Positions 5,909 through 42,849 of a stretch of 64,000 nt of DNA are shown piece after piece. A program made the position numbers and the translations under genes. Where the stretch lies: assembly GCA_964629655.1 (NCBI GenBank), contig CAZVQU010000003.1:17613-81612 (forward strand), read 5' to 3'. Under the pieces are notes generated by a model that did not search any database, was not told the DNA's origin, and worked only from the letters and a program-made list of their open reading frames with translations. Source of the stretch: an uncultured Planctomycetia bacterium. GTDB lineage: Bacteria; Omnitrophota; Gorgyraeia; Duberdicusellales; 4484-171. Numbering within the stretch: the first letter of the stretch is position 1; each line of letters opens with the position of its first letter.

Positions 5909-8900
5909 ATGAAGATCTCGGAATTTTCAGTAAAACACTCACTTTTGATTAATCTTATCTCCCTGTTTGTTCTTATTGCCGGGTTTTTTACTCTTTTTGT
6001 ATATAAGATCAGGAGAGAAGCTTTTCCCGAGGTATCCTATGACATGGTAGTCGTTAATACTGCTTATCTTGGCGCTCCGCCTCAGGAAGTAGAGAAGCTG
6101 GTTACTATACCGGTTGAAAAAGAGCTAAAAGGGGTTGATGGGATTGAGGAGATGCAGTCTACTTCCATTGAGAATGCCTCTAACATCCTGATAAAGATTA
6201 GTCAGGATGTGAAGGACAAGAAGAAGGTTGTTGATGATATCCAGAAAGCTGTTGATCGGGTCCGAAATCTACCTCAGGGCGTTGACGAGGATCCGGTAGT
6301 AACCGAGATTACTTCTGGTGAAATTCCAGTAATTCAAGTGGCATTAAGCGGAGAGTTACCCGAAGGCAAATTACAGGAATATGCAGATAACTTAGAAGAT
6401 ATATTTGAAGATATTCCGGGAGTGTCATCAATTTCTAAAAAGGGCTATCGTGATACTGAGGTATGGGTTGAAGTCGACCCTGAGAGATTGCAAGATGCCT
6501 ATGTTAGCTTAGAAGAGATAATGCAGGCGTTGGATAAGCAAAATATAAGCATTCCCGGAGGAAAAGTGCGCGGTGAGGAGGAGTTTAACATACGGACTAC
6601 CGGAGAATTTTATACTAAAGAGGAGATTGAAAATGTGGTTATCAGGGCTAATGAGTCGGGTAATTGGCTGCGTATAAAAGATATAGCTAGTGTGCGTTTT
6701 TCCTTTGAGGATGAAAACGTAATAAATAAAAGCTATGGGATGCGATCAGTTGATCTCACTATTATCAAGAGGGCAACCGGTGATGCGATTAAGATTGTCG
6801 ACGACGTTAAGAAACAGACAGAAGACTTCCTTGGCGGGAGCGACTCAAGGCTAAAAGTAGCTTATATAAATGATATATCTTACTACATCAAAAGAAGGCT
6901 TGGAGTTTTAAAGAATAATGGAATTATCGGTATATTCTTAGTCTGCACGGTTCTGATGCTATTCCTGAATTCGCGAGTCGCTCTTTTAACTACCTTAGGT
7001 CTTCCGATTGCCTTCTCAGCCACTCTTGCCATAATGGGCTTTTTTGGTTTGAGTGTTAACCTGATTACTATGTTTGGCTTAATCATAGTTTTGGGAATGT
7101 TGGTAGATGATGGAATTATTATAGCTGAGAATTGCTCCCGCTATCTCGAAGAGGGGTATAGCCCCAGGGAAGCAGCAATTATCGGAACCAAAGAAGTAGC
7201 TAAACCGGTTACTACTACAGTTATTACCACAATCGCTGCTTTTGCTCCACTTATGTTTATGGGCGGCATGCTTGGTAAATTTATCTGGGGGATACCTCTG
7301 GTTGTGATGATTGCTTTGTCAGCCTCGCTATTTGAAGCCTTGGTAATTTTACCTTCCCACTTTGCTGATTTTATTAAAACTGGAAAAAGGAAGTTTAAGT
7401 CAAGGAAGGATTTGCCGTGGTTTAAAAAGCTAGTTAGTTTTTACACCAGGATAGTGAATAAAGCCTTAAACCGGCGCTATTGGGTTCTCTTGGGATTAAT
7501 CGTTTTGCTTTTGCTTACCTTTGGATTAGCTAAAACTATGCCTTTTGTTCTCTTTGGTTCAGAGGAAGGAGTTGAGCAATTTTGGATTAGAGCTGAGGCT
7601 CCGGTTGGAACAAATATTTACAAGACTAACCAGTTGATAAGTAAGGTTGAGGCTATAGTTAAGGAGCTACCCGAGGATGAATTAGATGCTTACACTACTT
7701 TGGTTGGCTCAATTGGTGAGACTTGGATGTTTGATCCCTATGGTAAGTCAGGAAGCCATACTGCTCAAATTACAATATATCTTACTCCTTACACTGAACG
7801 CAAGAGAAGTGTCTCGGAAATTATGGATAGCATGAAGAAGGCGACAAAAGAAATAGTGGGTTTTGATAAACTTTACTTTGAGAGAGAACATGCTGGTCCG
7901 CCAGTGGGAAAAGCCGTGGCCGTTAAAGTAAGAGGAGAAAAATTTACAATCTTAGAGGAAATATCCGGAGAAATAATTAAATTTCTTGAAGGCACCGATG
8001 GAATTTTAGACATTACCTCTGACTATGAGGTTGGAAGGGGTGAAGTTAGGGTAGTTGTTAATCCTGACCAGGCAGCAAGAGTATCTCTTTCAGTAGGAGA
8101 AATTGCTACCTCAATCCGTAATGCTTTTAGGGGTGGCGTAGCTACTTCGATTAAGCCTGTGCAGGCCGAGGAAGAAATTGATGTTTTGGTGCGCTTTCCT
8201 GAAGAGCATCGCGATACCAAGAAAACTTTTGATAAGATTCTTATTCCTAACAAATTCGGCAACCTTATACCTTTGAATAAGGTAGCTCATCTGGAAGATA
8301 AAGTATCTTTAGCACGAATACAGCATTCCCGGGGTAAGAGAGTAATTACTGTCCGGGCTGATGTCGATGTTAAGAAGATTACTTCTCTTAAGGCTAATAA
8401 ATTTATTGATGATAAGTTTAAAGATATACCTAAAAGATATCCCGGTTACCGGATAGAATATGCCGGAGAGCAACAAGAAAATGTTAGGTCAGCAAAGGGG
8501 TTCATTAGTGCTTTCGGACTATCAGCATTCTTGATATTTTTAATTTTGGCCGCTAATTTCAACTCACTTATTCAACCGCTAGTGGTAATGATGGCAATTC
8601 CTTTTGGCCTTATCGGAGTTATTTGGGCCTTTTTCTTCCACGGGTTCTCCTTAAGCTTTTTTATGATGATGGGTATTGTTGGCTTAAGCGGGATTGTTGT
8701 TAATGATTCTATTGTTTTGGTTGAGTTTATTAATAATTTGCGCCGAAAAGGAATTGAGCGGCGGGAGTCGATTATTAGCGCCGGTCAGCTGAGGCTGCGG
8801 CCCGTACTGCTTACAACAATTACCACTGCCTTGGGCCTGACCCCGACTGCCTATGGTATTTGGGGAGGTGACCCATTCTTGCGGCCGATGGCGCTTACTA

Positions 8901-9040
8901 TTGTTTGGGGTATTATTTGCGCGACAGCTTTGACTTTGATAGTTCTTCCCTGTATTTATGCTATTATTGACGATTTTACCTTTAGGGTTGTCGGCCATGT
9001 GACTGTAAAAAAATCTAACCAACAAGAAAAGAATAAGTGA
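5909..9040 (+). CDS. RND efflux permease (AcrB/HAE1-like, 12 TM, two large periplasmic loops)
   Basis: 1043 aa. Conserved RND motifs (GLIIVLGMLVDDGIIIAEN, second half LIFLILAANFNSL, VGLSGIVVNDSIVLVEF). Confidence 0.85.
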   Translation: MKISEFSVKHSLLINLISLFVLIAGFFTLFVYKIRREAFPEVSYDMVVVNTAYLGAPPQEVEKLVTIPVEKELKGVDGIEEMQSTSIENASNILIKISQDVKDKKKVVDDIQKAVDRVRNLPQGVDEDPVVTEITSGEIPVIQVALSGELPEGKLQEYADNLEDIFEDIPGVSSISKKGYRDTEVWVEVDPERLQDAYVSLEEIMQALDKQNISIPGGKVRGEEEFNIRTTGEFYTKEEIENVVIRANESGNWLRIKDIASVRFSFEDENVINKSYGMRSVDLTIIKRATGDAIKIVDDVKKQTEDFLGGSDSRLKVAYINDISYYIKRRLGVLKNNGIIGIFLVCTVLMLFLNSRVALLTTLGLPIAFSATLAIMGFFGLSVNLITMFGLIIVLGMLVDDGIIIAENCSRYLEEGYSPREAAIIGTKEVAKPVTTTVITTIAAFAPLMFMGGMLGKFIWGIPLVVMIALSASLFEALVILPSHFADFIKTGKRKFKSRKDLPWFKKLVSFYTRIVNKALNRRYWVLLGLIVLLLLTFGLAKTMPFVLFGSEEGVEQFWIRAEAPVGTNIYKTNQLISKVEAIVKELPEDELDAYTTLVGSIGETWMFDPYGKSGSHTAQITIYLTPYTERKRSVSEIMDSMKKATKEIVGFDKLYFEREHAGPPVGKAVAVKVRGEKFTILEEISGEIIKFLEGTDGILDITSDYEVGRGEVRVVVNPDQAARVSLSVGEIATSIRNAFRGGVATSIKPVQAEEEIDVLVRFPEEHRDTKKTFDKILIPNKFGNLIPLNKVAHLEDKVSLARIQHSRGKRVITVRADVDVKKITSLKANKFIDDKFKDIPKRYPGYRIEYAGEQQENVRSAKGFISAFGLSAFLIFLILAANFNSLIQPLVVMMAIPFGLIGVIWAFFFHGFSLSFFMMMGIVGLSGIVVNDSIVLVEFINNLRRKGIERRESIISAGQLRLRPVLLTTITTALGLTPTAYGIWGGDPFLRPMALTIVWGIICATALTLIVLPCIYAIIDDFTFRVVGHVTVKKSNQQEKNK

Positions 9041-9052
9041 TATAATACATCA

Positions 9053-10192
9053 ATGATAAAGAAACCACTTCTTTTAAAGATTTATGAAGCCGCACCTATG
9101 CAACGCTGGAACGACCAGATCCGCACTGTCGAGCTGACCGAATTAGATAAACAGGCCCATAAAATGGTTATTGCCTATTGCTTGGGCAAGTGTGAAGAGG
9201 ATAACCAAACAAAAGGTTTTGATTGGGTTGAGGTAATTGAGGCCGGAATTTTTGAGTTTCTCCAGCGGATTGTAATCACTGATTTAAAGCCGGCGCTATT
9301 TCACCGGATAAAAGATAATAAAAAACAATATAAAAAGTTAAATCAGTGGGCCTATAAAGAAATAAGCCCGGTTATAAGCTCTTTGGGCGAGGGTTTTTGC
9401 GGGAGGTTTCAGAATTATTTATATGATCCTGAACGTAATGTGAATCGTAGGATCATAAGCGCCGCTCACTTCTGGGCTACTAAGTGGGAGTTTGATATTA
9501 TTGAGCGGGCTAACCCTAATGGTTATGCGATTGAGGAGATAAAAGAAGATATACGTACTAAACAGGAGAAGTATCAGGATCTCGGGAGCATGCAGAAACT
9601 GCTGCATTCTCAGAAATTAAAGGATTTTGTAGATATCTGCGGCCAGCTGAGATTCCAAATACGCTGGAGTCATCTCCATCGAGTTCCTAAAACCTCAGTC
9701 TTAGGGCATATGCTAATTGTGGCGATGCTAGCCTATTTATTCTCTTTAGAGATAAAAGCTGATAGTAAAAGGGTTATAAATAATTACTTTACCGGCCTAT
9801 TTCATGATTTACCAGAAGTTCTTACTCGTGATATAATTAATCCGGTAAAAAGAGCAGTCCAAGGATTAGAGGACTTAATTAAAGAATACGAGCGTTCTGC
9901 GATGGAGGCAAAGATATATAAGTTAATTCCTACAACCTGGCATCAAGCTATGCATATGTTTACTGAAAGTGAGTTTACCAATATTGTAGCCTCAGATGGT
10001 ACCGTAGAAAGAGACGGAGAACTTATAAAAGGCATTGACCAATTAGCAGCTTTTATTGAGGCTTATCTATCTTTGAAAAATGGCGTACAAAGTCAAGCCT
10101 TGGAGAGAGCAGTAGCCAATGTTAGAAAAGAATACCAGTCAAAGGCTCTTTGCGGTATAGATTTCGGCCAGATATATAGCGATTTTGATTGA
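9053..10192 (+). CDS. Tandem HD-domain phosphohydrolase (YfbR-like 5'-deoxynucleotidase fold; first repeat degenerate)
   Basis: Second repeat carries RWSHLHRVPKTSVLGHMLIVAM...LFHDLPEVLTRDI (H...HD metal motif). First repeat RWNDQIRTVELTELDKQAHKMVIAYCL is similar but lacks the HD dyad. Confidence 0.55.
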   Translation: MIKKPLLLKIYEAAPMQRWNDQIRTVELTELDKQAHKMVIAYCLGKCEEDNQTKGFDWVEVIEAGIFEFLQRIVITDLKPALFHRIKDNKKQYKKLNQWAYKEISPVISSLGEGFCGRFQNYLYDPERNVNRRIISAAHFWATKWEFDIIERANPNGYAIEEIKEDIRTKQEKYQDLGSMQKLLHSQKLKDFVDICGQLRFQIRWSHLHRVPKTSVLGHMLIVAMLAYLFSLEIKADSKRVINNYFTGLFHDLPEVLTRDIINPVKRAVQGLEDLIKEYERSAMEAKIYKLIPTTWHQAMHMFTESEFTNIVASDGTVERDGELIKGIDQLAAFIEAYLSLKNGVQSQALERAVANVRKEYQSKALCGIDFGQIYSDFD

Positions 10193-38810: not shown

Positions 38811-39899
38811 GTGTGCATGCAAGAGGTTGTTCGTGAAGAACGGAATTTAAGTTTTTTCGAAAAATATCTAACGATTTGGGTTATCGGCTGTATTGGTCTG
38901 GGTATTTCACTTGGAAGGCTGTTTCCCCAAGTGGCTGTTGCTTTGGATAAGGTCTCTATATATCAGGTTTCAATTCCGATAGCAATATGCCTTTTTTTCA
39001 TGATGTATCCAATTATGGTCAAGATTGATTTTGCCCAAGTAGTTAAGGCCGGAAAGACTCCGAAACCGGTATTGCTTACCCTGTTCGTAAATTGGTGCAT
39101 TAAACCATTTACGATGATGGCTATTGCGACTTTATTTTTGGGAGTAATTTTTAAAGGTTGGCTGCCGGGATTCGAGGTTATCAAAGGGGGAGGGTAAGTA
39201 GAGCTATATCGATCGTATATTTCCGGATGTATTTTACTCGGTATCGCTCCTTGTACGGCAATGGTCCTTATTTGGGGGCATCTGTCTAAAGGTAATGACG
39301 GCCACACCTTGGTTATGGTAGCAATAAACTCCTTAACAATGTTATTTCTCTATGCGCCATTAGGCAGTTGGTTATTAGGTGTTAACAAAATGCCTATACC
39401 TTGGCAAACAATTGTATTATCGGTTGTAATTTATGTAGGGCTACCGCTTATTCTCGGGTATTATTCAAGGAGACTGATTATTGCTAGAAAAGGTTTTAAG
39501 TGGTTTGAAGAAAAGTTCATTCATCGTCTAACTCCGGTATCTATCGGGGCATTGCTTATTACCTTGGTTCTTTTGTTTTCATTTAAAGGGAATTTGATTA
39601 TTAGTCAGCCACAAATCATTGTATTAATCGCCGTACCGCTCTTTATTCAAACCTGCCTGATTTTCGGATTAGCCTATTTAATGGCTAGGTGGCTAAAATT
39701 TCCATACCGGGATGCTGCTCCTTCTGCGCTTATCGGGGCAAGCAATCACTTTGAGGTTGCTATAGCAACCTCAGCAATGCTTTATGGGTTATCATCAGGA
39801 GCGTCATTGGCTACTGTAGTAGGTGTGTTGATTGAGGTGCCAGTTATGCTCATGTTGGTCAGAGTATGCTTGAGGACTAAGCATATATTTGCTAGATAG
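38811..39899 (+). pseudogene. ACR3-family arsenite efflux permease interrupted by a single in-frame TAA (39195-39197)
   Basis: ORFs 38811-39197 and 39261-39899 are in the same frame. Read-through gives ...[34 protein letters not shown]..., restoring a roughly 362-aa ACR3 (N-term FEKYLTIWVIGCIGLGISLG; conserved GIAPCTAM). Confidence 0.7.
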
Positions 39900-40013: not shown

Positions 40014-40958
40014 ATGAATATTGGAATAGCTAAGGAAATAGGCGCTAGAACCTTGGAACGCAGAGCGATTCTTTTACCAAGAGAGGTTGGTAAATTGGTT
40101 GAAGCCGGACACAAGATTTTTTTTGAGAAAGGTCTGGGAAAGGGCATATATATCAATGATTCTGAGTACAAACAAGCCGGGGCAGAGGTAGTTAGCCAGA
40201 GAAAGAACATTTTTAATAAATCCATCGTTGTAAAGTTGAAACCTCCACTGCCGCAGGAATTTGGATTACTAAACAATAATTTATTGTTCAGCATGCTTCA
40301 CGCTGAGCAAAACCCAAAATATATAAAGGCCCTAAGGAGAAATAAGGCTAAAGCTATTGCTATGGAGTTGATTCGAAATAGGGGCGGTGAGCGTCTTATC
40401 CAGTGTTCGGGTATGTCTGGCGAGCAAGGTATGATTTATGCTTTCTATCTTGCCGAAAAAAGCCCCAGTGAATGTAATGTTTTAGTTTTAGGCTATGGTG
40501 CTATTGCAACTGGGGCTTTGAGGGTCGCTTTTAGTCTAGGAGCTAAGGTCAAAGTTTTAAGGAAGCAAGAGTATCCTTACATAAAGCAATTTATTAAAGA
40601 CAAAGATATTGTGGTTAACGGCATCCAGTGGCCTAAAGAAAAAAGAGAGAAAAAGGAATATCTTATTACAAAGGAGATGTTTTCTCTTTTCAACAGGGGT
40701 GCGGTAGTTTTGGATCTTTCTGTGGACTATCCTAACCCCATTGAACCTTGCCATCCTTCCTTCCTTAACCAGCCGGTTTATGAAATTAACGGTATAAAGT
40801 GCATTAGTATATATGGTTATCCCAGGTTGGCACCTGTCTCCAGCTCTCGACGGTACTCAAAAAAAGTATTACCTATATTATTAAAAATTGCATCTATCCC
40901 GTTAGGAGAACTTCCGAAACATATCAAGGAAGCTATTGTTGACCCTGATAAATACTGA
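40014..40958 (+). CDS. AlaDH/PNT-family NAD(P)-dependent enzyme (N5-(carboxyethyl)ornithine-synthase / opine-synthase-like size)
   Basis: MNIGIAKEIGARTLERRAILLPREVGKLVEAGHKIFFEKGLGKGIYINDSEYKQAGAEV (AlaDh_PNT_N) and Rossmann VLVLGYGAIATGALRVA. 314 aa, shorter than alanine dehydrogenase. Confidence 0.6.
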   Translation: MNIGIAKEIGARTLERRAILLPREVGKLVEAGHKIFFEKGLGKGIYINDSEYKQAGAEVVSQRKNIFNKSIVVKLKPPLPQEFGLLNNNLLFSMLHAEQNPKYIKALRRNKAKAIAMELIRNRGGERLIQCSGMSGEQGMIYAFYLAEKSPSECNVLVLGYGAIATGALRVAFSLGAKVKVLRKQEYPYIKQFIKDKDIVVNGIQWPKEKREKKEYLITKEMFSLFNRGAVVLDLSVDYPNPIEPCHPSFLNQPVYEINGIKCISIYGYPRLAPVSSSRRYSKKVLPILLKIASIPLGELPKHIKEAIVDPDKY

Positions 40959-40964
40959 ATTGTT

Positions 40965-42029
40965 ATGAAAAAAACTCTTTTAATTATTGGAGATAGAAGA
41001 ACCAAAGGCCGTACGCTAGACCCTTCTTTTAATGCCTTTGCCAGAATCATTGAGAATTCCAAAGACAAAAATTTAGAGGCATATATCCTTAGTTATAAAG
41101 ATGTGTTTGAAGGCAATTTTCCTGAAGTGCCTAGTCCGGTTTTGACTATACTTTTATTTTTTCCGTATAAATATTGGGATAAGAATATTGAAGTATATGA
41201 AGATGACTCCAAAGTATACGGAGATAATTCATTTGGCCGAGAATTTCGGAAGTATTTCGAAAAATTAGAAAAGATTATAGGGAAAAAGTACCGCGATAAG
41301 AAAATTGAGTATGTTAATCCTCCCGATAAGTCAATTCTCGACAGGGATAAAGAAGAAACTAAAAAGTTTTTTCGGCATCACAGTATTCCCACTCCAAGGA
41401 GTTTCAATGTGAAGAGCCTAGGAGACCTTTACCGGGTCGTTAAACGGGGAATATCATTGTATGTAAAGCCAAGATTTGGCGCTATGGGCAAAGGCATTAC
41501 CTACCTCAGCAATGACTTGATGATTACAAACTTTTTGTTCCAAAAGGGTGAAATCATTAGCCATCCCTATGATTATCATTGGCGGTTTCACGAAGTTAAA
41601 GATAAGGATAAAGATAAGTTTTTAAAGATTCTGCTATCCCGGGGATTTATTTTTGAGGAAGCCATTGATCCCCCGATAAATAAGGGGAGGAGGTCTGATT
41701 TTCGGGTCTATTGTCTTTATGGAAAAGTGTCTTATTGTTACGCTCGGTCTACGCCGGCTGTCTCTCTGGTGACTAATTGGTCACAGGGAGGCAAGATTGT
41801 GCAAAAAAGAAAACTCTCCCAATATATATCTACTGCTAAATTAAATCAGGTTAAATCTCTAGCCCGAAAAGTTGCCAAAGAGCTTAAATTGAATTATACC
41901 GGAGTGGATATTATTTTTTCCAAAGATTACAAAAAGATTTATGCTTTAGAAGCCCATTCGTTCCCCGGGTATGAGCGAGGATTTGATTTGATGAATGACC
42001 TGGCCAAGAAGATTCTTAAGACAAAATAG
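40965..42029 (+). CDS. ATP-grasp fold ligase-like protein
   Basis: ISLYVKPRFGAMGKGITYL...FRVYCLYGKVSYCYAR...GVDIIFSKD resembles the ATP-grasp central/C-terminal domains. Confidence 0.5.
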   Translation: MKKTLLIIGDRRTKGRTLDPSFNAFARIIENSKDKNLEAYILSYKDVFEGNFPEVPSPVLTILLFFPYKYWDKNIEVYEDDSKVYGDNSFGREFRKYFEKLEKIIGKKYRDKKIEYVNPPDKSILDRDKEETKKFFRHHSIPTPRSFNVKSLGDLYRVVKRGISLYVKPRFGAMGKGITYLSNDLMITNFLFQKGEIISHPYDYHWRFHEVKDKDKDKFLKILLSRGFIFEEAIDPPINKGRRSDFRVYCLYGKVSYCYARSTPAVSLVTNWSQGGKIVQKRKLSQYISTAKLNQVKSLARKVAKELKLNYTGVDIIFSKDYKKIYALEAHSFPGYERGFDLMNDLAKKILKTK

Positions 42030-42102
42030 TTTGTCGGCGCGGGTAATTGTTCTATCCTACTCTTTATGAAAGTATGAGTTTGTCGATTTAAAGAAAAACA
42101 AT

Positions 42103-42849
42103 ATGAGAAATTGTCCAATCTGCCGTAGCCAAAACATCCAGTTATTATCTCCACAGGAACCCTGTTGTCATGATTATGTGTCATGCGATGCCTGCGGTCT
42201 TACTTGGGCGATTTTATCTGATGAAAATGTTATGGGACGAAATAAGGAGGCTCATGTGTCGCTTGGCGAAGATAGCAGTTCTTGGAGAAATCGCCGGTTA
42301 CTTTTCAATAACTTGCTGGAAAAAATAGGAATTGCTGATCTTGAGGTCTCTCTTGGAAGAAGGCCGAAGGTTCTAGATGTTGGTTGCGGAATAGGTGATC
42401 TTATGGAAGTTTTTCGATTCCGTGATTGGGATGTTTCAGGAATTGAAGTTAATTCTACTATGGTGGAATTTAGCCGAGATAAGGGACGTATTGTCGACAA
42501 CCTATCGCTGGAAGAAGTTCCCTTTGAAAACTTTTATTATGATATGATTTTCGCTTGTCATGTCATTGAACATCTCAGTGATCCCTTGCTTCTTTTTAAG
42601 AAAGCTAAGCAATTGCTTGCTCCAGGTGGGTGGTTGGTTATTGTTACTCCTGTCTACACTTATTTTGGCGATCCTAACACTATCTTTTTCTTTAAAGAAA
42701 AGAGCCTTCGGGTTGCAGGGAAGAGAACAGGTTTTCACTTTAAGTGGATGCATGTATATGAGGATGCGAATCCTGAGCATCAACATTGGAATCAAGGCGG
42801 GGTAGCAAACGGCATTGCCAGGTTTGAAAAGAAAGATGACAGTAGATAG
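42103..42849 (+). CDS. Class I SAM-dependent methyltransferase with N-terminal Zn-ribbon
   Basis: CPICRSQ...CDACGL then VLDVGCGIGDLM (motif I) and DMIFACHVIEHL. Confidence 0.7.
   Translation: MRNCPICRSQNIQLLSPQEPCCHDYVSCDACGLTWAILSDENVMGRNKEAHVSLGEDSSSWRNRRLLFNNLLEKIGIADLEVSLGRRPKVLDVGCGIGDLMEVFRFRDWDVSGIEVNSTMVEFSRDKGRIVDNLSLEEVPFENFYYDMIFACHVIEHLSDPLLLFKKAKQLLAPGGWLVIVTPVYTYFGDPNTIFFFKEKSLRVAGKRTGFHFKWMHVYEDANPEHQHWNQGGVANGIARFEKKDDSR

Follow-up and report, generated by a model that had tools for sequence, protein, structure and literature searches.

An uncharacterized two-gene operon encoding an AlaDH/PNT-superfamily dehydrogenase and an ATP-grasp ligase in Omnitrophota

INTRODUCTION

In the biosynthesis of pyrrolysine, an ATP-grasp ligase (PylC) and an NAD-dependent dehydrogenase (PylD) act on a lysine conjugate. 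In the pathways leading to N-acetylglutaminylglutamine amide (NAGGN) and N-acetylaspartylglutamate (NAAG), N-acetyl dipeptides are synthesized with the help of a GNAT protein and an ATP-grasp enzyme. Dehydrogenases of the AlaDH/PNT superfamily include alanine dehydrogenase (AlaDH), whose catalytic residues we take to be Arg15, Lys75, His96, and Asp270 in the numbering of the Mycobacterium tuberculosis enzyme, as well as the L-lysine-forming saccharopine dehydrogenase (SDH) and the lysine-ketoglutarate reductase (LKR) domain of AASS. Here, we describe a pair of genes, g1 and g2, that combines a dehydrogenase of this superfamily with an ATP-grasp ligase. The pair is found in a stretch of 64,000 nucleotides, hereafter the window, from an uncultured bacterium placed in the Omnitrophota (contig CAZVQU010000003.1 of assembly GCA_964629655.1, positions 17,613 to 81,612 of the forward strand). 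Unless a locus is named, all coordinates below are window positions.

g1 (40014 to 40958) encodes a dehydrogenase of 314 amino acids (aa) that belongs to a short, distinct subfamily within the AlaDH/PNT superfamily, g2 (40965 to 42029) encodes a 354-aa ATP-grasp amide ligase of the Pfam YheC/D family, and a third gene, g3 (42103 to 42849), encodes a 248-aa class I S-adenosylmethionine (SAM) methyltransferase that carries a zinc ribbon with four Cys at its N terminus. All three open reading frames (ORFs) lie on the forward strand, with gaps of 6 nt between g1 and g2 and 73 nt between g2 and g3. An earlier note on this DNA, made from the sequence, had grouped them into a single cassette for opine-type condensation, amide ligation, and methylation; its ORFs, gaps, and domains were borne out by the ORF coordinates and by Pfam. 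The g1-g2 pair brings together the same two enzyme classes as PylC/PylD, which act in a short pathway on amino-acid amines. Compared with the NAGGN and NAAG pathways, the pair in the window has no GNAT, whereas it has a dehydrogenase that is missing from those pathways. It resembles the logic of both PylC/PylD and GNAT plus ATP-grasp but belongs to neither system, and g1 and g2 are new subfamilies of known superfamilies.

RESULTS

The conservation of the locus was examined in 89 related loci, 6 of which were taken via g1 homologues, 80 via a genome scan with an alignment of the ATP-grasp protein, and 3 via homologues of the dehydrogenase of group C (see below). The first 86 of them were covered by tblastn and ORF clustering. 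The results showed that the g1 orthologue was located directly upstream of the g2 orthologue, on the same strand, in all 43 of the 43 orthologous loci. These loci came from Omnitrophota, Auribacterota, and one short contig of Aenigmatarchaeota, and their ATP-grasp proteins were 40 to 90% identical to g2. In the loci of this group (group A), the gap between the two genes was mostly between -35 and +24 nt, with overlaps of 1 or 4 nt in many of them; in the window, the junction is 6 nt long (40959 to 40964, forward strand), and the sequence there reads TGAATTGTTATG. The outer flanks of the pair varied from clade to clade. As a rule, the two genes are closely coupled, and the functional unit is a two-gene operon, g1-g2, that is uncharacterized. 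Of the three-gene cassette proposed earlier, the g1-g2 part stood, and the membership of g3 did not (see below). Hundreds of close homologues of each of g1 and g2 were found in public data, and the two are therefore real genes rather than chance ORFs; the nearest homologues were in metagenome-assembled genomes (MAGs) of Omnitrophota. In a literature search on ATP-grasp enzymes with SDH, LKR, opine dehydrogenase, or AlaDH, or in Omnitrophota or DPANN archaea, the pair was undescribed, although an earlier computational mention is possible. A pair of the group A type is carried by a short contig binned as Aenigmatarchaeota (L042; JBHIDR010000050.1, 4155 bp), with identities of 49% for g1 and 37% for g2, as a result of either horizontal transfer or mis-binning.

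g1 matched the Pfam domains AlaDh_PNT_N (E value of 4e-28) and AlaDh_PNT_C (9e-19). In length and domain type, it is presumably similar to N5-(carboxyethyl)ornithine synthase. Twenty-five aligned orthologues from across the phylum were 61 to 84% identical to g1, and the identity reached up to 87% among the homologues listed. Residues R17, K74, H96, E118, R127, and D238 and the motif G160-Y-G162 were invariant in the 25 orthologues, and K76 was nearly invariant. Four of these residues, R17, K76, H96, and D238, align with the catalytic Arg, Lys, His, and Asp of AlaDH, a set that g1 keeps in common with SDH and LKR as well. The best matches of g1 in both sequence and fold were to AlaDH; an AlphaFold2 model of g1 (pLDDT of 88) was closest to AlaDH 1pjb, with a TM-score of 0.77.

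With these matches, with all four catalytic residues in place, and with some members of the family labeled alanine dehydrogenase by JGI, g1 could be taken for the alanine dehydrogenase of this lineage, serving ammonia assimilation or acting as a fermentative redox sink, and it would then adjoin g2 only to supply L-alanine or because operons are packed closely in a streamlined genome. However, g1 scored 115.3 bits against the AlaDH equivalog model TIGR00518, far below the cutoff of 391.85. It is also about 55 residues shorter than AlaDH (about 370 aa), and both a beta-alpha unit of the Rossmann fold and the glycine-rich loop GGRGVLLGGVPG are missing from it, so that the fold is shortened as in SDH and LKR. 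Strand beta2 ends with ILRK and not with the NAD-specifying ILD. An additional active-site Arg, R127, is a second substrate-binding Arg and follows a conserved Glu; it is equivalent to R131 of yeast SDH, and the position is occupied by Leu in AlaDH. Moreover, the partnership of a dehydrogenase with a ligase was found in three clades, and in one of these the dehydrogenase is a true LKR homologue (see below). A plain alanine dehydrogenase is therefore quite unlikely. That g1 is not an AlaDH orthologue had already been stated in the earlier note. Nor is g1 a transhydrogenase alpha subunit (PntA): the scores against the two PntA models were 80 bits (cutoff of 383) and 61 bits (cutoff of 444), again far below the cutoffs. 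No pntB-like neighbor was present in any fetched locus. In a plasmid collection, all matches of g1 and of the group C dehydrogenase were to ordinary ald and pntA genes (20 to 31% identity), and g2 had no match.

Other features of g1 emerged when it was aligned with Thermus AlaDH, human LKR, and the partners of groups B and C. The Arg corresponding to R127 is common to human LKR and groups B and C, and g1 has a DIVVNGIxW motif, as found on the LKR/SDH side (DIxxNxxxW). There were also differences from SDH and LKR. The match to yeast SDH was weak (3e-5) and limited to residues 11 to 129, an insertion of about 35 residues that LKR shares with groups B and C is missing, the Lys three residues after the catalytic His is absent, and g1 has an insertion of its own, KEKRxxKEY. 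Because Gln99 takes the place of the Lys and the insertion of about 35 residues is missing, g1 is best described, by its sequence features, as a distinct and minimal subfamily, which we place between alanine dehydrogenase and the saccharopine dehydrogenase/LKR branch. As a general rule for Rossmann folds, the residue at the end of beta2 indicates whether NAD or NADP is used; the ILRK ending, in place of ILD, suggests NADP(H) for g1, which is thus probably NADP(H)-dependent.

The product of g2 matched the Pfam family ATPgrasp_YheCD (PF14398) with an E value of 1.8e-11 and a score of 44.3 bits, above the cutoff of 26.8; the paralogous ligases of clades B and C (see below) scored 62 and 55 bits, respectively. 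The family is small: of 1.84 billion cluster representatives, 252 matched at E<=1e-10 and 61 at E<=1e-30. A sequence search of the PDB gave no match for g2. It has a three-domain ATP-grasp fold with a pre-ATP-grasp domain. Several of its residues, K168, R170, K176, D245, R247, N271, Q274-G-G276, D315, and E329, were invariant and are typical of nucleotide or metal binding. Because the residues expected to bind ATP and Mg are invariant, g2 is most likely an active amide ligase that forms an acyl phosphate.

The fold of g2 was closest to those of ArgX and LysX, ligases of amino-group carrier protein pathways, and of RimK, which glutamylates ribosomal protein S6. These neighbors raise the alternative that g2 attaches an amino acid at the C-terminal carboxylate of some protein whose gene lies elsewhere, either a ribosomal protein or a LysW-like carrier, with g1 supplying the added amino acid or acting on a carrier-bound intermediate. 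However, g2 was just 15 to 19% identical to ArgX, LysX, and RimK, and it scored far below the NCBIfam cutoffs for rimK_fam (42.7 versus 143.4), LysX (27 versus 275.6), and MptN (61.4 versus 350). For the pair as a whole, the NCBIfam matches (alaDH, PntA, MptN, STM4014, RimK, and LysX) were all below threshold. ORFs of 30 to 110 aa within 3.5 kb of the pair were clustered in 84 loci, and none of these small ORFs was conserved, which leaves no candidate there for a LysW-like carrier or a peptide precursor. The sole recurrent one encoded a hydrophobic peptide of 63 aa and was present in 5 loci of one subclade. In the same 84 loci, there were no genes near the ligase for a LysW-like carrier, which is a small acidic zinc-ribbon protein, or for a kinase or reductase of the LysZ/LysY type, as would be found in a LysW-type pathway, and no conserved precursor peptide gene beside it, as for a graspetide macrocyclase. 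The recurring partner is a dehydrogenase of the small-molecule type and not the kinase and reductase set of the LysW pathway. For these reasons, the modification of a protein or carrier is unlikely.

The dehydrogenase-ligase partnership recurs in three clades. The ligases of clade B are Omnitrophota paralogues, about 31 to 35% identical to g2, and in 19 of 19 loci the ligase gene was located directly behind a gene for an LKR homologue of about 435 aa, whose match to the LKR domain of human AASS was full-length and had an E value of 1.8e-64. An example of such a pair is found at positions 6682 to 9059 of locus L063, and the 18 other loci include L054, L058 to L060, and L064. Pairs of clades A and B can coexist in one MAG (L009 and L064), whereas a second pair, of group B, was looked for in the window and was absent. 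Clade C was found in Woese-, Micr-, Iain-, and Nanoarchaeota, in MAGs labeled Methanosarcinales, in a MAG of Spirochaetota, and in others. Here, the order is ATP-grasp, GNAT, sometimes a class I glutamine amidotransferase, and then a convergent gene for an AlaDH/PNT protein of 357 aa, which is intermediate in its matches to AlaDH (1e-40), LKR (1e-13), and SDH (1e-10). In one protein (P0247, 514 aa), the ATP-grasp ligase is fused to the GNAT. A ligase followed by or fused to a GNAT is a likeness of clade C to the Ngg/AsnO and NAAG pathways, and the Ngg model TIGR03103 gave marginal matches for clade C only. The ATP-grasp and GNAT genes of this clade were observed in L043 to L057, L087, and L088, with an example of the archaeal trio at positions 7989 to 11117 of L053; in L088, the trio adjoins a gene for an MscS-type mechanosensitive channel.

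In neighbor-joining trees, the three dehydrogenase clades were each monophyletic, as were ligase clades A and B, and each dehydrogenase clade pairs with its own ligase clade. The co-diversification of the dehydrogenase and ligase clades speaks for long co-inheritance of the pair rather than chance adjacency.

No transporter, no nicotianamine-synthase-like gene, and no metal-related gene was conserved beside the pair in the fetched loci, which leaves the metallophore suggested in the earlier note without support. No further catabolic gene was conserved either. This result bears on another explanation, according to which the pair is a catabolic module: g1 would oxidatively cleave an amino compound or one of the opine type, such as a lysine or ornithine derivative from a host or the environment, and g2 would act on the acid set free. 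Enzymes of the LKR/SDH type serve lysine catabolism, and Omnitrophota and DPANN archaea are thought to depend on external nutrients, both in keeping with such a role. However, besides the missing transporter and catabolic genes, the predicted NADP site and the ATP-consuming ligase fit biosynthesis better, and we regard a catabolic role as very unlikely.

Some neighbors of the pair recurred in parts of the set. A pair of Band_7/SPFH genes was found within a few kb of group A pairs (L003, 13189 to 15128; L015; L035) and of group B pairs (L072, L075, and L083). In 8 loci of one Omnitrophota subclade (L005, 9992 to 11887; L006, L019, L020, L022, L023, L024, and L049), a PabB-PabC fusion (aminodeoxychorismate synthase/lyase) was encoded 3' of the ATP-grasp gene, sometimes with a gap of 1 to 6 nt, and was followed by a radical-SAM-like gene, a CCA-adding-enzyme-like gene, and a LOG-family gene. 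A link of the pair to p-aminobenzoate was considered and set aside because the same block also contains a protein-L-isoaspartate O-methyltransferase (PIMT) gene together with the CCA-adding enzyme and LOG-family genes; the arrangement was judged to be operon packing specific to the subclade.

The product of g3 matched the Pfam families Methyltransf_23, -11, -12, and -25 with E values from 4e-18 to 3e-11, and it was above the Pfam thresholds for Methyltransf_23 (66 bits versus 27) and Methyltransf_11 (56.6 versus 21.2). The N-terminal CxxC...CxxC of the zinc ribbon corresponds to C4, C7, C28, and C31 in the translation. According to the earlier note, methylation by g3 would follow opine condensation by g1 and amide ligation by g2, giving a methylated conjugate such as a metallophore or compatible solute. 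The three genes are indeed co-oriented with short gaps, with no terminator-like site between g2 and g3. A promoter and terminator scan of the locus was uninformative, with counts at the level of shuffled sequence. However, no g3 homologue was found in any of the 86 related loci (tblastn, E<=1e-5), and the single match at E<0.1 among them was weak and not adjacent to the pair (L071). In the closest relatives (L007 to L009), the pair was 84 to 90% identical and the upstream ACR3 gene was kept, but other genes lay downstream; even in the close relatives L007 to L010, the downstream genes differed from those of the window. Because g3 is absent from the 86 loci, including the relatives that keep ACR3, it is a lineage-specific chance neighbor and the unit is g1-g2. 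The synteny of all three genes in relatives, which the earlier note had itself chosen as a check, does not extend to g3, and g3 was ruled out as a part of the unit on this ground.

A methyltransferase gene was found behind the ligase in three distant relatives, at positions 9288 to 10010 of L019 and in the same slot in L020 and L024, and this could be counted in favor of the three-step pathway. However, it encodes a bona fide PIMT, which is different from g3 and scored 228 bits against an equivalog cutoff of 188, as ordinary protein-repair enzymes do; its presence in a g3-like slot is probably a coincidence. Genes related to metals or to export were likewise not conserved beside the pair, and the pathway of three steps is most improbable. 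The case of g3 shows that adjacency in one genome is no evidence for a cassette.

The surroundings of the three genes in the window were as described earlier, with LMW-phosphatase/ArsC-like and ACR3 genes upstream and histidine kinase-PilZ and response regulator genes downstream. In full, the 5' neighbors encode thioredoxin-reductase-like, PNPOx-like, and LMW-phosphatase/ArsC-like proteins, an inositol monophosphatase, GDT1, an Na+/H+ exchanger-EIIA protein, and ACR3, and the 3' neighbors encode a PAS-histidine kinase-PilZ protein and a response regulator. The ACR3 arsenite-efflux gene (38811 to 39899), just 5' of g1, is broken by an in-frame TAA at 39195 to 39197. At this position, L007 to L009 carry GAA (Glu), and their gene for 360 aa is intact and otherwise 83 to 95% identical. 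The stop is either a nonsense mutation, making ACR3 a pseudogene, or a sequencing error.

DISCUSSION

The pairing of g1 with g2, the co-diversification of the two families, the retention of the catalytic residues, and the fold class were observed. From these observations, we infer which way the reaction runs, its cofactor and substrates, the sequence of the steps, and that the product is a small molecule. In the reading that we favor, and hold with middling confidence, g1 forms an amino acid or an opine-type acid with NADPH, and g2 ligates it through an amide bond to give a small amino-acid conjugate. g1 would reduce, with NADPH, the imine formed from a 2-oxo acid and either ammonia or the amine of an amino acid. 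The oxo acid would probably be dicarboxylic, and the reaction would yield either an amino acid or an N-(carboxyalkyl) acid of the opine type; the second Arg, R127, is a hint that the oxo acid is dicarboxylic or that the product is of the opine type. g2 would then activate a carboxylate as an acyl phosphate and, consuming ATP, join it to an amino group in amide linkage, with the product of g1 as one of its two partners. In the version of clade C, N-acetylation by the GNAT would be added. The opine-type condensation put forward in the earlier note is plausible in view of the features that g1 shares with SDH and LKR and of the paralogous ATP-grasp ligase that is paired with a true LKR homologue.

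Several points weigh against the synthesis of such a conjugate. In raw sequence score against the PDB, g1 is nearer to AlaDH (2eez, 3.6e-35) than to saccharopine dehydrogenase (3e-5), and it has no equivalent of Lys99 of SDH; this position, in the motif HAEQ, is an invariant Gln99 in g1, whereas the Lys is present in LKR and in groups B and C. Because of this score and the missing Lys99 equivalent, plain reductive amination with ammonia is also a possible reaction for g1. Its preference for NADP is read from sequence alone. The nearest structural relatives of g2, namely ArgX, LysX, and RimK, act on protein C termini and not on free small molecules. A Thermoplasmatota clade of ATP-grasp proteins had no dehydrogenase within the DNA fetched.

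A wider proposal, about which we are rather doubtful, is that g1-g2 belongs to an old and undescribed two-enzyme pathway that exists in three co-diversified versions in Omnitrophota and DPANN-type archaea, organisms that are generally described as ultra-small. The pathway would make a new class of amides of N-carboxyalkyl (opine-type) amino acids, which would be N-acetylated in the archaea. If so, its product could serve as an osmolyte, as the tail of a cofactor, or as a building block of the cell surface.

The pairing shows strict conservation and co-diversification across three clades, and it is confined to poorly understood lineages, namely Omnitrophota, Auribacterota, DPANN archaea, and a small number of others. 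Because these organisms have few recognizable biosynthetic pathways, a conserved two-enzyme module that consumes ATP probably makes something that they need. Naming its product would give a function to several hundred genes now annotated as hypothetical or misnamed as alanine dehydrogenase, as well as to a small orphan family of ATP-grasp proteins.

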